A DNA stretch of 64,000 nucleotides from assembly GCF_016026235.1 (NCBI RefSeq), contig NZ_CP065613.1; one strand, 5' to 3'. The stretch is from Escherichia coli. GTDB taxonomy: Bacteria > Pseudomonadota > Gammaproteobacteria > Enterobacterales > Enterobacteriaceae. A program made the position numbers. This document shows, piece after piece, positions 18,001 to 21,000 of this stretch (position 1 is the stretch's first letter; each line of letters begins with the position of its first letter).

Positions 18001-21000
18001 ACTCCGTTAACTCAATGCTGCGGGTACTGCGAGTGAACAACACCACATCCAGCCCCGTTTCCATACGCTTAATGGTGTAGCTAATGGCGGAAGTGGTTAA
18101 ACCCAACTCGTCTGCGGCTTTACTGAAGCTGCCAAATCGCGCAGCGGTAGTAAATGCCAACAGATTCTCTTCGGTAAAAACTGAGTTCATTAAACCATTC
18201 TCGCCATTATCTAATATGAATTTCTCCAGCCATGACTGTAGAGGTATCGATTAAAGATAGATAATCATTTTTGAATAACTTTTAATACCCGTCGCGTTTA
18301 GTCGTCGCTTCGCTTAATTTTTGTCCGCCATATTCTGAAACTATCCCCACGCAGTTACCCGCCAGAAAACCCAGTAACGTCACCGTCCAGTTCATCCCGC
18401 AGGCAAAAAACAGCGTCATGCCGAGAAAGCCACCGGGAATGAATGACAGTAACCAGAAACGTCCTTGCCAGACCACTACCGCTGAGAAAGGCACGGTAGT
18501 AATCACGCTCGCCCAGAACCCGGAAATCCCACTTACAGAGGCCAGCCAGCCGGAAGCCAGCGCGGCAAAAAACGCCCACACCATCCCGGAATAGTTAACC
18601 GCCAGACTTCTGATAAACCCTGATTTACCGCCGCCTGCGGCATAAAAACTGCAAAAGGCGACGAAGCCAATGGTTCCTAATAATTCCCATCCCTGAGAAA
18701 GCCCAACATGTGAAGATACTAACTGCCAAAGCCCTGCACAAACACCGACGGTTATACCCGTTGCAGTGAGTCCGTTCATCTTGTTCCCCCTCTGGTTAGA
18801 CATGGACGAAAGCTGCGCTTATATGTGCAGACTATAGAGAAATAAAACCTGATTGAGTGAAAGGGTATCGGGTCAAAGAAACAAATATTGCACTACCGCA
18901 CACTGCGAAAAGATTGTTGAACATCATTCAACAAAAAGGCGAAATACGGCGAATTAAATTTAAGCGGGTTCTTTTATCAGATTAACGTTGCTATTCTCAA
19001 TTCATCGAAAACAGCCACAAAAATCAGGGGAATGTTAATGAGTATAAAAAATCTACCTGCCGACTATTTATTGGCTGCACAACAGGGCGATATCGATAAA
19101 GTAAAAACCTGCTTTGCGCTGGGTGTCGATATTAATACCTGCGATCGCCAGGGGAAAACGGCAATTACGCTGGCAAGTTTATATCAGCAATATGCTTGTG
19201 TTCAGGCATTAATTGATGCCGGAGCGGATATTAATAAACAAGACCAGACCAGTTTAAATCCTTTTTTAATCAGTTGCCTGAACGGTGATTTAACCCTGTT
19301 ACGAATTATTTTACCGGCTAAACCCGATCTTAATTGTGTAACCCGTTTTGGCGGTGTCGGCCTGACGCCTGCCTGTGAAAAAGGCCATTTAAGTATTGTA
19401 AAAGAGCTTTTGGCGCACACCGATATTAACGTTAACCAGACCAACCATGTTGGCTGGACGCCGCTGCTTGAAGCGATTGTGCTTAATGATGGTGGTATTA
19501 AACAGCAGGCGATTGTGCAGTTATTGCTGGAACACGGTGCCAGCCCGCATCTGACCGATAAATATGGCAAAACGCCGCTGGAACTGGCGCGGGAACGGGG
19601 CTTTGAAGAGATTGCGCAGTTACTGATTGCCGCAGGTGCATAAACCGGGAGGCTTGCTATCAACACACCAGAAAAACGGTGTGTGTGGGCGCTAACTGCG
19701 GATGCGGATTTTCTGGCGCAGCGGGGGCAAGGACAGGTTGAACAGGTCTTTGCCAGAGCGGTAAATATCGCACTCCCGGCTCGCCAGCAGTTGCTGACGC
19801 TGCTTTGTGAAGAGTACGACAATGCGCCAAACAGTTGTCGGTTGGCACTCACTCACTTTGATGATCTGTTCCGGCATGGTGATAAGGTTCAGTTTGACGA
19901 TCAAGGTATTACGGTTGGTCAACATCTTCATATAGAGATGAGTCGTTGTCGGCGTTGGCTGTCCCCAACCTTGCAAATGACCGCTGTGAATTTTCACCTT
20001 ATCGCCTGGCAACAGTGGCACGACATTATTCATCAGCACCTGGGGGAAAATGAAACCCTGTTTAATTATCGCGGCGATAATCCGTTTTATCAGGCGTTAA
20101 ATAAAGAATTACATATTAAACGACGGGCAGTTATTCAGACAGTAAACGATAAGCAAAATATCGCCTCAGCGGTCGCCAGTATGATGGGGTTAGGGATTGG
20201 CCTTACGCCATCAGCCGACGATTATTTAACAGGTCTGGCGCTTATTTTATTTATTCCCGGGCATCCGGCGGAAAAATACAAAGAGGAATTTTATCTCGGT
20301 CTGCAACGCGGCAGAAATAATACCACATTATTAAGTGCCATAACGCTGGAAGCCGCATTACAACAACGCTGCCGGGAAAATATTCATCGTTTTATTCACA
20401 ACATTATTTATGACATTCCTGGGAACGCAACTCAGGCAATAGAAAAAATTAAACATATTGGCTCCAGTTCCGGCTGCGACATGCTGTATGGCATGGCCGA
20501 TGGTTGTGCGCTGAGCCAAACCTACGGAGGGAATTATGTCAGTTAAAATAGTCATTAAACCGAATACCTATTTTGATTCTGTCTCGCTGATGTCTATCTC
20601 CACGCGTGCAAATAAACTCGATGGCGTCGAGCAGGCATTTGTGGCGATGGCGACCGAAATGAACAAAGGCGTGCTGAAAAATTTAGGGCTGCTGACGCCG
20701 GAGCTTGAGCAGGCGAAAAACGGCGACCTGATGATTGTCATTAACGGCAAAGCGGGCGCGGACAACGAGCAGTTGCTGGTAGAGATTGAAGAACTGTTCA
20801 ACAGCAAAGCGCAAAGTGGCTCGCACGAGGCGCGTTACGCCACCCTTGCCAGCGCCAAAAAGCATATCCCGGAAAGTAACCTAGCGGTGATTTCGGTCAA
20901 CGGTCTGTTTGCCGCTCGCGAAGCACGTCAGGCGCTGCAAAATGACCTCAACGTGATGCTGTTTTCCGATAACGTCTCGGTTGAAGATGAACTGGCGCTC

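Follow-up and report, generated by a model that had tools for sequence, protein, structure and literature searches.

The closest described counterpart of the yah enzymes is AllFGH, the oxamic transcarbamylase of E. coli, which is encoded in the allF operon and was identified in 2024 (PMC11326118). Formation of carbamoyl phosphate by a three-subunit enzyme has been demonstrated only for AllFGH with oxalurate (PMC11326118). Several small ankyrin proteins are encoded beside an enzyme. Bd3460 of Bdellovibrio and the Imm-ank proteins bind and block that enzyme (PMC4686830; PMC3482391), and EF0377 of Enterococcus faecalis is co-transcribed with the amidohydrolase EF0378 and is induced during infection (PMC2912369). 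In Pseudomonas aeruginosa, katB and ankB are co-transcribed and full catalase activity needs AnkB, according to the account of Howell et al. (2000) as cited in PMC2912369. Few parts of E. coli K-12 have as many uncharacterised genes lying close together as the yahD region (PMC11551758). In the literature found there was no functional study of yahD, yahB or yahEFG; yahD was named only in lists, and YahB only in candidate lists.

The window analysed here was a stretch of 64,000 nucleotides of E. coli (contig NZ_CP065613.1). In it, yahD opened the yahDEFGIJ gene series, and yahC-yahB ran divergently on the opposite strand. The yahD gene and its six repeats were located as follows.

19026–19031, plus strand: AGGGGA, a Shine-Dalgarno-like element read from the sequence, 6 nt before ATG 19038 and conserved in Kluyvera
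19038–19643, plus strand: yahD CDS, 201 aa plus stop (ORF, Pfam, and RefSeq annotation of a near-identical strain)
19047–19142, plus strand: repeat R1 (repeat register and conservation, as for the other repeats)
19143–19241, plus strand: repeat R2
19242–19340, plus strand: repeat R3
19341–19442, plus strand: repeat R4, with the invariant hairpin T-R-F-G-G-V-G (residues 102–108)
19443–19556, plus strand: repeat R5, with the invariant insertion N-D-G-G-x-x-Q-Q (residues 150–157)
19557–19640, plus strand: repeat R6

The gene was the already-known E. coli yahD, the orthologue of K-12 b0318. The RefSeq label of the locus was yahD, and the protein was 95–97% identical, with 100% coverage, to the main E. 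coli clusters; the yahC | yahD-yahE arrangement was also that of K-12. The allele came from a divergent lineage (~97% DNA identity to most E. coli), and yahD was present in 5084 of 5426 complete E. coli genomes (94%). The open reading frame spanned 19032–19643 on the plus strand. The start was placed at 19038 because it fits the Shine-Dalgarno spacing, the conserved N-terminus of the orthologues and the CDS start that RefSeq gives for a strain 99.9% identical. The alternative ATG at 19032 is unlikely to be used, since AGGGGA abuts it.

The preliminary description of an ankyrin-repeat YahD at 19038–19643 was confirmed. This 201-aa reading frame on the plus strand matched Pfam Ank_2 with 123.5 bits (cut-off 27.3; E 5.4e-36), far beyond chance, and the Ank, Ank_3, Ank_4 and Ank_5 profiles were also above their own cut-offs. 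YahD is a member of the ankyrin repeat proteins (Pfam clan Ank). AlphaFold models were composed of six helix-pair repeats (residues 3–16/19–27, 42–48/52–60, 75–82/85–94, 110–115/118–127, 142–148/154–165 and 180–186/190–198), with pLDDT mostly 80–95; the invariant hairpin, residues 102–106, was the sole low-confidence part. No signal peptide was found in YahD, and the N-terminus formed the first ankyrin helix. A Dot/Icm effector of a type IV secretion system was rejected as an identity for YahD because of scores and gene context: the best NCBIfam effector match, AnkG, scored 73 bits where 500 are required, no secretion genes adjoined yahD, and the gene lies on the chromosome and is kept in free-living enterics.

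A YahD/ABAYE2397 subfamily was defined in the present analysis by a groove signature of three elements: an R-[FY]-G-G hairpin before repeat 4, the motif N-x-x-G-W-T..L-[LIM]-E-A-[IV], and a 5-residue insertion of the G-[DN]-G-G type in repeat 5. YahD and 11 relatives, drawn from four phyla, had all three; the elements were absent from a consensus designed ankyrin and were invariant in 32 non-redundant YahD sequences. Among natural structures, Foldseek matched the YahD model best to 5D66 (ABAYE2397 of Acinetobacter baumannii, a 1.0 Å structure; target-normalised TM 0.93, r.m.s.d. 1.7 Å, 42% identity) and 3HRA (EF0377; TM 0.86, r.m.s.d. 2.1 Å, 36% identity). An exhaustive profile-free search with YahD returned mostly giant eukaryote-like ankyrin proteins, with P0264 and P0169 as the only useful matches.

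The genes downstream of yahD were assigned from profile and structure matches.

19683–20546, plus strand: yahE, AllH family (DUF2877; Pfam PF11392, E 1.9e-28)
20536–22083, plus strand: yahF, FdrA/AllF-like, succinyl-CoA-ligase-alpha-like subunit (Pfam CoA_binding and Ligase_CoA; NCBIfam FdrA, 493 bits)
22083–23501, plus strand: yahG, AllG-family (DUF1116) subunit (Pfam PF06545, E 8.8e-88; PDB 3clq, E 2e-194)
23514–23792, no strand: three tandem 93-bp REP/BIME-type palindromic units, the 'yahH' region (repeat search; locus comparison; PMC11551758)
23831–24781, plus strand: yahI, carbamate kinase family (NCBIfam PRK12352, 649 bits; Pfam AA_kinase)
24791–26173, plus strand: yahJ, AtzC/cytosine-deaminase-like amidohydrolase (Pfam Amidohydro_3; NCBIfam PRK06846, 717 bits)

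The position of yahD directly upstream of yahEFG, noted earlier, also held: yahE followed on the same strand after a gap of 39 nt, and a terminator scan found no terminator-like site between the two genes or elsewhere inside the operon. The yahF gene overlapped yahE by 11 nt, and the start of yahG overlapped the stop of yahF. YahE, YahF, YahG and YahI all scored above the Pfam or NCBIfam cut-offs, so that the gene content of an AllFGH-type cluster was present; as judged by this content, yahEFG and yahI are an AllFGH-type carbamoyltransferase gene cluster. The REP/BIME units sat where most other genera have a gene for a 516-aa permease; Citrobacter and Providencia are examples with the permease gene and thus the complete cluster. 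YahJ matched PDB 6nbo (E 4e-44) and, in Foldseek, AtzC with a target-normalised TM of 0.79, and its translated N-terminus carried the twin-arginine signal SRREFL.

In the proposed pathway, yahDEFGIJ would be a horizontally mobile catabolic island under the control of the LysR-type regulator YahB. YahE, YahF and YahG are presumed to cleave a ureido compound phosphorolytically; the carbamoyl phosphate formed would then be turned by the carbamate kinase YahI into ATP, NH3 and CO2. YahJ, or a GuaD-like deaminase in Bacillales, would deaminate an amino-N-heterocycle upstream, and the permease would complete the pathway set.

The region upstream of yahD contained the following features.

17258–18190, minus strand: yahB, LysR-type regulator (Pfam HTH_1 and LysR_substrate), divergent from yahD and downstream of yahC
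18282–18803, minus strand: yahC, DUF1097 membrane protein (Pfam DUF1097)
18914–18934, no strand: perfect inverted repeat TTGTTGAA-N5-TTCAACAA, containing T-N11-A, in the yahC-yahD intergenic region
18992–18997, plus strand: candidate −10 hexamer TATTCT, within the invariant TTGCTAT.CT block, ~40 nt upstream of yahD

The inverted repeat was unique in the window, with 0 expected in 100 shuffles, and fell in a stretch that is also conserved in Raoultella, Kluyvera and Serratia; it is a candidate operator to which YahB may bind. The TTGCTAT.CT block was kept in four genera, and its TATTCT is a putative −10 hexamer for yahD. A consensus sigma-70 scan found no canonical promoter upstream of yahD; activator-dependent promoters usually do not have the canonical sigma-70 consensus. 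No Rfam match was obtained within 18780–19700 at a relaxed threshold, so the conserved yahD leader is not a known riboswitch.

The compared set comprised 90 loci from two phyla with unrelated flanking contexts. The cluster was headed by yahD in 85 of these (Enterobacterales, Aeromonas, Burkholderiales and Bacillales) and yahB adjoined yahD in 79, whereas yahC was confined to clusters of the Escherichia/Kluyvera/Raoultella/K. spallanzanii type. The yahD cluster was also carried by IncF-type conjugative plasmids (71 records), many of them recovered from poultry and human isolates. Psychrobacillus and Gottfriedia had no leading yahD; instead, a gene placed after yahG and before yahI joined a YahD-like ankyrin domain, colinear with YahD at 36% identity and with the signature kept, to TPR repeats. 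TPR repeats are a protein-interaction module. With the fusion counted where the leading gene was missing, a YahD-family ankyrin was found in every yah-type AllFGH-like cluster examined. No ankyrin gene was found in the K-12 allFGH cluster or in the third AllFGH-like cluster, a plasmid type with a cysteine hydrolase. Comparison of the loci strongly supports the view that YahD belongs functionally to the yah pathway.

The best explanation, which may well be right but is tentative, is that YahD is a cytoplasmic, non-catalytic adaptor or binding subunit, dedicated to this pathway, that heads a YahB-controlled catabolic operon and docks on the YahF-YahG core. Its concave groove, which is strictly conserved (the R103-F104-G-G hairpin, W140 and the NDGG..QQ insertion), would most likely make the contact, and docking would assemble, stabilise or gate the YahF-YahG enzyme. 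In this model the docking itself, the protein that is docked on and the consequence for the enzyme are inferences. The leading position of yahD across two phyla with differing flanks and on the plasmids was counted for it, as were the retention of the ankyrin through rearrangement as a TPR fusion, its restriction to one of the three AllFGH-like types examined, the uninterrupted yahD-yahE junction and the operator/promoter block common to four genera.

Rates of evolution were also counted for the adaptor model. The dN/dS of yahD was 0.04–0.06 within Escherichia, similar to that of the cluster enzymes, which represented strong purifying selection. A yahF value of 0.79 against E. albertii was disregarded, since an indel in a tblastn segment had distorted the alignment. 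The ankyrin target-binding positions of YahD were as conserved as the framework (top-residue frequency 0.88 and 0.85, respectively). Relative rates of YahD correlated with those of YahF (r = 0.51/0.44/0.31, permutation p <= 0.001) and of YahG (r = 0.33/0.26/0.19); the YahF-YahG pair, a positive control, gave r = 0.40–0.53. The correlation was ~0 with YahI, YahJ (−0.03 to 0.12) and YahB, though YahB is encoded by the adjacent gene. The co-variation may also stem from substrate shifts common to the proteins or from recombination tracts.

Other observations were counted against the adaptor model. The yahE gene, the fastest-evolving of the cluster (identity 26–64%, dN/dS 0.15–0.19), was missing in ~20 species that retain yahD. 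YahD orthologues also occurred with no YahEFG nearby, in Cytobacillus and Alkalihalobacillus (order J-J-D, with YahJ-type amidohydrolases) and in Cedecea (yahD-yahJ alone). The check by predicted complexes was run as fused-chain AF2 with a monomer model and paired 24-sequence alignments and was read by pTM only. YahD-YahF gave a pTM of 0.55, a weak test in which YahF was only moderately confident, and YahD-YahJ gave 0.57, about the expectation for undocked domains, with YahJ only moderately confident; confident docking was obtained with neither, and values of this size, which undocked domains also give, speak neither for nor against binding. AllFGH was active in vitro without any ankyrin (PMC11326118), which was likewise counted against the model. 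The preliminary description had suggested a scaffold for the yah pathway. Its membership part stood, on the leading position, the TPR fusion and the co-variation with YahF and YahG, whereas physical scaffolding of YahE, YahF and YahG gained no support from the docking or from the ankyrin-free activity of AllFGH.

The conserved groove residues of YahD were aromatic or polar (R103, F104, W140, E145, N136 and D69), and their invariance makes a metabolite-binding role a live rival, although a rather unlikely one. The groove would bind a small amino-N-heterocycle or a ureide product in place of a protein, and YahD would be a carrier, buffer or sensor presenting the compound to YahEFG, while exported relatives would serve transporters in the periplasm. 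The residues resemble those of the 2-5A-binding ankyrin domain of RNase L (1WDY and 4G8K), to which repeats 4–5 of YahD, the lengthened repeat included, gave their best partial sequence match, and the invariant hairpin coincided with the only low-confidence part of the model. No protein was common to all contexts of the family (EFG and I without J; J-type without EFG; GuaD-like with or without MFS), whereas the three signature elements were common to every context. An ankyrin gene was directly followed by a GuaD-like deaminase gene in five genera, and in Defluviimonas two YahJ-like amidohydrolases and an ankyrin occurred together. Many relatives with the groove signature carried signal or lipoprotein peptides, whereas the adjacent GuaD-like deaminase had no signal, so a direct complex is excluded there. 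The occurrence of the signature beside GuaD-like deaminases, often in exported proteins, indicates that the groove is not specific to YahF and YahG across the superfamily, and this was also counted against the adaptor model. Shared substrate specificity would explain the co-variation with YahF and YahG equally well. However, the ankyrin-TPR fusion points to protein contacts, and 5D66 and 3HRA have no known ligand. Ankyrin repeats overwhelmingly bind proteins, and we know of no free-standing bacterial ankyrin that binds a metabolite. It is still less likely that the whole superfamily of YahD, ABAYE2397 and EF0377 consists of metabolite-binding ankyrins, cytoplasmic or exported, acting as carriers or sensors for deaminases, AllFGH-like enzymes and transporters.

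The recurrent position of the family beside deaminating enzymes (Cytobacillus, Alkalihalobacillus, Cedecea, Defluviimonas, EF0377 and the five GuaD genera) would also fit an inhibitor or chaperone of YahJ or a similar deaminase, which would spare cellular bases until Tat export. The twin-arginine signal implies that YahJ folds before export, and ankyrin inhibitors have precedents (PMC4686830; Imm-ank in PMC3482391). Such a role is improbable, because the YahD-YahJ rates were uncorrelated, the fused chains stayed at about the undocked level, and yahD was retained without yahJ or another deaminase in Paenibacillus, Herminiimonas and the IncF plasmids. In addition, Bacillales YahJ homologues were cytoplasmic, without a signal peptide, and exported sister ankyrins cannot meet their cytoplasmic deaminases. 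Export of YahD as a Tat 'hitch-hiker' bound to YahJ was rejected, as yahD persists without yahJ and the Bacillales YahJ has no signal peptide.

A partner encoded elsewhere, such as a regulator or division protein, or modulation of YahB by YahD, was also considered; either would leave YahD outside the enzyme machinery. Filamentous cells showed a 17-fold enrichment of a cloned UTI89 fragment that carries yahD, yahE and some of yahF (PMC6206680), deletion of EF0377 altered the virulence of E. faecalis in Galleria (PMC2912369), and YahD docked confidently on neither YahF nor YahJ. However, the filamentation effect was not narrowed down to one gene of the fragment, and the groove was conserved although the regulators differed among ankyrin contexts (LysR, PucR, two-component/AraC and GntR). 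Retention through rearrangement, fusion and inter-phylum transfer is also hard to explain for a passenger, and a target outside the cluster is improbable.

The association of the ankyrin with yah-type clusters but not with the two other AllFGH-like types examined turns a bare annotation into concrete questions, whether the enzyme depends on the ankyrin and whether the enzyme or the substrate is bound. The function of YahD, once known, would explain the crystal structures 5D66 and 3HRA and could help to identify the nitrogen compound of the island. If the groove binds a metabolite, this would be, to our knowledge, the first bacterial ankyrin family with a small-metabolite ligand, and it would offer a way to find out what the orphan yah pathway acts on.

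Among the known systems, RNase L offers a precedent for metabolite binding, as its ankyrin groove binds a small nucleotide ligand (2-5A); it is a eukaryotic multidomain enzyme, and the repeat-level similarity does not establish homology of function. AnkB was likened to the family by description, not by sequence. In the cited account it is periplasmic, like the exported sister proteins of YahD, whereas YahD has no signal peptide, and the enzyme class, a catalase, differs. The partners of Bd3460 and Imm-ank are a secreted DD-endopeptidase or nuclease toxins, whereas YahD lies in a catabolic operon, does not co-vary with YahJ and persists without any deaminase. EF0377 has a similar deaminase/amidohydrolase neighbour, and its partner gene encodes a D-aminoacylase-family amidohydrolase. 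ABAYE2397 shares the family signature with YahD, but carries a signal peptide, and the genes after it encode a GuaD-like deaminase and an MFS transporter instead of AllFGH-like proteins. With AllFGH (fdrA-ylbE-ylbF-ybcF), the identities were 39% between YahF and K-12 FdrA, 43% between YahG and K-12 YlbE, and 38% between YahI and AllK, while YahE and AllH were family-level paralogues. The presumed logic is the same, ureido phosphorolysis to carbamoyl phosphate and then ATP formation by carbamate kinase. The gene order was H-F-G in yah and F-G-H in all, the ankyrin gene was absent from the all cluster, and the yah type has two additions, a permease and a deaminase that is AtzC-like or GuaD-like.

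The yahD gene of the window was read as an ORF whose in-frame ATG at 19038 gives a protein of 201 residues, and this start agreed with the aligned N-termini of orthologues. The gene order was ehaA, pdeL, yahB, yahC, a 234-nt intergenic region, yahD, yahE, yahF, yahG, REP units, yahI, and yahJ.

Features of the yah region in the window
11937-15986, 1349-residue autotransporter adhesin (annotated as EhaA in the nearest genome), flanked by betT and pdeL and lying shortly before the yah region
yahB, minus strand, LysR regulator
18282-18803, minus strand, yahC, DUF1097 membrane protein
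19026-19031, plus strand, Shine-Dalgarno sequence AGGGGA of yahD, 6 nt before the ATG
19032-19643, plus strand, yahD ORF
yahE, AllH family, 39 nt after yahD
yahF, FdrA/AllF-like, overlapping yahE by 11 nt
yahG, AllG family, its start overlapping the yahF stop
23514-23792, three tandem 93-bp REP/BIME-type palindromic units between yahG and yahI
yahI, carbamate kinase, after the REP units
yahJ, amidohydrolase, with its signal-bearing start at 24791-24900

YahD matched the Pfam model Ank_2 (E 5.4e-36; 123.5 bits, cut-off 27.3) and four further Pfam ankyrin models. The AlphaFold2 models were composed of six stacked helix pairs with pLDDT mostly 80-95, the hairpin 102-106 being the sole low-confidence portion, and YahD lacked a signal peptide. 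The same 606-nt CDS is named yahD by RefSeq in a 99.9%-identical strain. These results confirmed the preliminary description of an ankyrin-repeat protein encoded upstream of yahE. The gene was found in 5084 of 5426 complete E. coli genomes, and its dN/dS within Escherichia (0.04-0.06) was similar to that of the adjoining enzymes; yahD is a real gene under selection. It is already known as an annotated E. coli gene, and two relatives have deposited structures. Among 32 non-redundant YahD sequences, the top-residue frequency was 0.88 at the canonical target-binding positions, 0.85 in the framework, and 0.80 on the outer face, and the RF hairpin and the NDGG..QQ insertion were invariant.

The yahDEFGIJ operon has already been proposed from ribosome profiling (PMC4765031). 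A terminator scan gave no terminator-like site between yahD and yahE, a canonical sigma-70 promoter was not found upstream of yahD, and the yahD leader matched no Rfam family. A block of the yahC-yahD intergenic region is shared with Raoultella, Kluyvera, and Serratia. Inside this block, conserved across four genera, a perfect 8-bp inverted repeat, TTGTTGAA-N5-TTCAACAA, was located at 18914-18934. It was unique in the window (0 expected), conforms to the T-N11-A pattern of LysR boxes, and is a candidate YahB operator. The second and third REP units were 97% and 87% identical to the first, and the old 'yahH' corresponds to long spurious ORFs across them.

At only ~97% identity to most E. coli, the window DNA points to a divergent lineage. 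In the nearest genome, strain FDAARGOS_943 (locus L001, NZ_CP065615.1, 8065-8909 and 12284-13702; 99.9% identical), an IS5 between yahC and yahD truncates yahC, and an internal stop has led to annotation of yahG as a pseudogene; neither defect is present in the window. A UTI89 expression-library fragment containing yahD, yahE, and part of yahF (361,550-364,162) was 17-fold enriched among filamentous cells, and was not narrowed to one responsible gene (PMC6206680).

Orthologous loci were collected by searching a single genome of each species for YahD-specific motifs. The best 80 of 146 loci, with loci from an exact protein look-up, gave 90 loci typed by tblastn. In 85 of these, yahF/yahG-type genes followed yahD. 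The prevailing order was yahB / yahD-E-F-G-X-I-J, where X encodes a 516-residue multi-pass membrane protein that matched no Pfam or NCBIfam model and was 72% identical between Serratia and Brevibacillus. In Escherichia, Kluyvera, Raoultella, and K. spallanzanii, yahC was present instead of X. The two genes were mutually exclusive in the typed loci (yahC in 18, X in ~60 others; 18282-18803 of the window compared with L002 and L017-L086), which suggests that one transporter replaced the other. The REP array of E. coli occupies the position of X. In most other genera the permease-like gene fills this slot, so E. coli has apparently lost one component of the cluster.

In ~20 species, comprising a whole clade (Enterobacter, Lelliottia, Leclercia, Silvania, and Huaxiibacter) as well as Aeromonas cavernicola and Serratia sp. 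DD3, yahE was missing and yahD was kept (L047, L048, L056, L057, L060, L064, L069, L072-L074, L076, L078, L079, L081-L086). The yahD-yahF spacing in these loci was just 110-510 nt, and the remaining genes were intact; the AllH subunit is reported to be required for AllFGH. The arrangement D-E-F-G(-X/NCS1)-I, without yahJ, was found in Herminiimonas, Saezia, Brevibacillus, and Paenibacillus. The identities between E. coli and Brevibacillus were 78% for G, 72% for X, 66% for F, 59% for I, 54% for D, and 26% for E. These values, and flanking genes that vary among genera, indicate that the yah island has moved between phyla as one unit. IncF conjugative plasmids of E. coli and Klebsiella carried a second copy, yahB / D-E-F-G-X-I, flanked by IS elements and with YahD at 71.6% identity. 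This copy occurred on 71 plasmid records, many from poultry.

The ankyrin was specific to the yah type. No ankyrin was found in the K-12 allFGH cluster or in a third AllFGH-like cluster, which adjoins the yah-type cluster without yahJ on the same IncF plasmids (L092, L097; NZ_CP019909.1, 21300-44886). The third cluster encodes, in this order, a cysteine hydrolase, DUF2877, FdrA, DUF1116, carbamate kinase, an allophanate-hydrolase-C-domain protein, a cytosine permease, and a LysR regulator; the hydrolase, the allophanate-hydrolase domain, and the permease hint at a biuret- or allophanate-like substrate. The yah-type clusters of Psychrobacillus glaciei and Gottfriedia, with YahG 85-86% identical to that of Brevibacillus, had no gene before yahE. 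Instead, a gene between yahG and yahI (L104 10499-11662; L105 10649-11839), with a product of 387 or 396 residues, encoded a YahD-like ankyrin domain and, after it, TPR repeats. The domain was colinear with YahD residues 1-196 at 36% identity, kept the family signature, and had 5D66 as its best natural PDB match. Both genes were blank in precomputed Pfam tables, while hmmscan gave Ank_2 (E 5e-33) and TPR_2 (E 3e-23), and this annotation gap could conceal more fusions. Thus, either as leading yahD or as the fusion, a YahD-family ankyrin was present in every yah-type EFG cluster examined. Such persistence despite rearrangement and fusion argues more strongly for functional coupling than adjacency does by itself.

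Rate co-variation was calculated on a fixed neighbour-joining tree whose branch lengths were fitted by NNLS, with the other genes serving as background. In 66 taxa, YahD co-varied with YahF (r 0.51) and YahG (0.33), and the values for YahI, YahJ, and YahB were 0.02, -0.03, and -0.04. In the 51 taxa with yahE, the values were 0.44 for YahF (permutation p < 0.001), 0.27 for YahE, and 0.26 for YahG, and in the 54 taxa with X, YahD-YahF gave 0.31 (p 0.001). For comparison, YahF-YahG gave 0.40-0.53 and YahI-YahJ 0.48-0.59. Adjacency alone does not explain the YahD-YahF signal, as no correlation was seen for the neighbouring pairs YahD-YahB and YahE-YahF; recombination tracts or substrate shifts that the proteins share are possible causes of the co-variation with YahF and YahG. 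Fused-chain AlphaFold2 runs with paired alignments, a weak test, gave pTM 0.55 for YahD-YahF and 0.57 for YahD-YahJ, with no confident docking.

The best-supported reading, put forward tentatively from the constant co-occurrence, the yah-type specificity, the TPR fusion, and the co-variation, is that YahD would serve the yah pathway as its dedicated non-catalytic binding component, its likeliest contact being the YahF-YahG core. The earlier proposal of a scaffold for YahE/F/G was supported as regards a link to the pathway, with physical contact a putative part of it. It is unlikely that YahD guards YahJ or a deaminase, given the absent rate correlation with YahJ and the clusters that keep yahD without yahJ. 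A target outside the yah cluster seems equally improbable, given how yahD is kept with yah-type clusters through rearrangement and fusion.

YahD and its relatives were also found in contexts that lack YahEFG. In Cytobacillus and Alkalihalobacillus, YahD orthologues (56-58% identity) follow an Opp-type ABC transporter and two YahJ-like amidohydrolases without signal peptide, 40-45% identical to YahJ. Cedecea davisae has only yahB / yahD-yahJ. A sister group, 35-46% identical to YahD, shares R-[FY]-G-G, G-W-T..L-L-E-A-I, and the G-[DN]-G-G insertion, and includes ABAYE2397, whose structure (PDB 5D66) matched the YahD model best (TM 0.93, rmsd 1.7 A). Most of its members bear signal or lipoprotein peptides. 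In A. baumannii, two Paracoccus, Martelella, and Proteus mirabilis, the sister-group gene is followed at -4 to +36 nt by a GuaD-like CDA-fold deaminase without signal (L095 6881-8089; L096 6911-8088; L098; L099; L102 3884-5034). A cytoplasmic member in Defluviimonas lies after a YahJ-like amidohydrolase pair and before an MFS transporter; others lie by a histidine kinase/response regulator/heme-binding-protein unit or in unrelated contexts. E. faecalis EF0377 (PDB 3HRA) shares a transcript with EF0378, an amidohydrolase gene, and is induced in vivo (PMC2912369). GuaD-like deaminases were also present inside Bacillales yah-type clusters and beside yahB in Providencia. A Logan contig encodes a 428-residue protein (P0169; L006 4911-6197) of two tandem YahD-like halves, each 43-44% identical to YahD, beside a LysR regulator and an MFS transporter. 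The recurring theme of the wider family is deamination and catabolism of amino-N-heterocycles.

In the main rival to the binding-component reading, the ligand of the conserved groove would be a small heterocycle or ureide. This is the less probable of the two, and it would account for the same groove in contexts without a common protein and in proteins exported away from the cytoplasmic enzyme of their operon. If true, it would give ankyrin repeats an unusual ligand class. YahD is not a surprising kind of object, and offers a tractable way into the orphan yah pathway. The searched literature held no statement of a YahD-family ankyrin as a constant part of one AllFGH-like subtype, of the ankyrin-TPR form, or of the deaminase-operon association, all of which are proposed here from comparative genomics.

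A 2024 study identified AllFGH (FdrA-YlbE-YlbF) as the oxamic transcarbamylase that functions in anaerobic allantoin degradation together with carbamate kinase AllK (PMC11326118). YahF, YahG, and YahI were 39%, 43%, and 38% identical to AllF, AllG, and AllK, and YahE belongs to the AllH family, so the yah cluster is a paralogous system, predicted to act on a ureido substrate. By sequence and fold, the nearest kin of YahJ were AtzC (N-isopropylammelide isopropylaminohydrolase) and cytosine, 5-methylcytosine, and isocytosine deaminases. YahJ begins with a twin-arginine signal, SRREFL (MKESNSRREFLSQSGKMVTAAALFGTSVPLAHA), so this enzyme is probably periplasmic in Enterobacterales; its Bacillales homologues have no signal peptide. 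In the Acinetobacter, Paracoccus, Martelella, and Proteus modules, the exported ankyrin and cytoplasmic deaminase are predicted to occupy different compartments, a topology reminiscent of katB-ankB.
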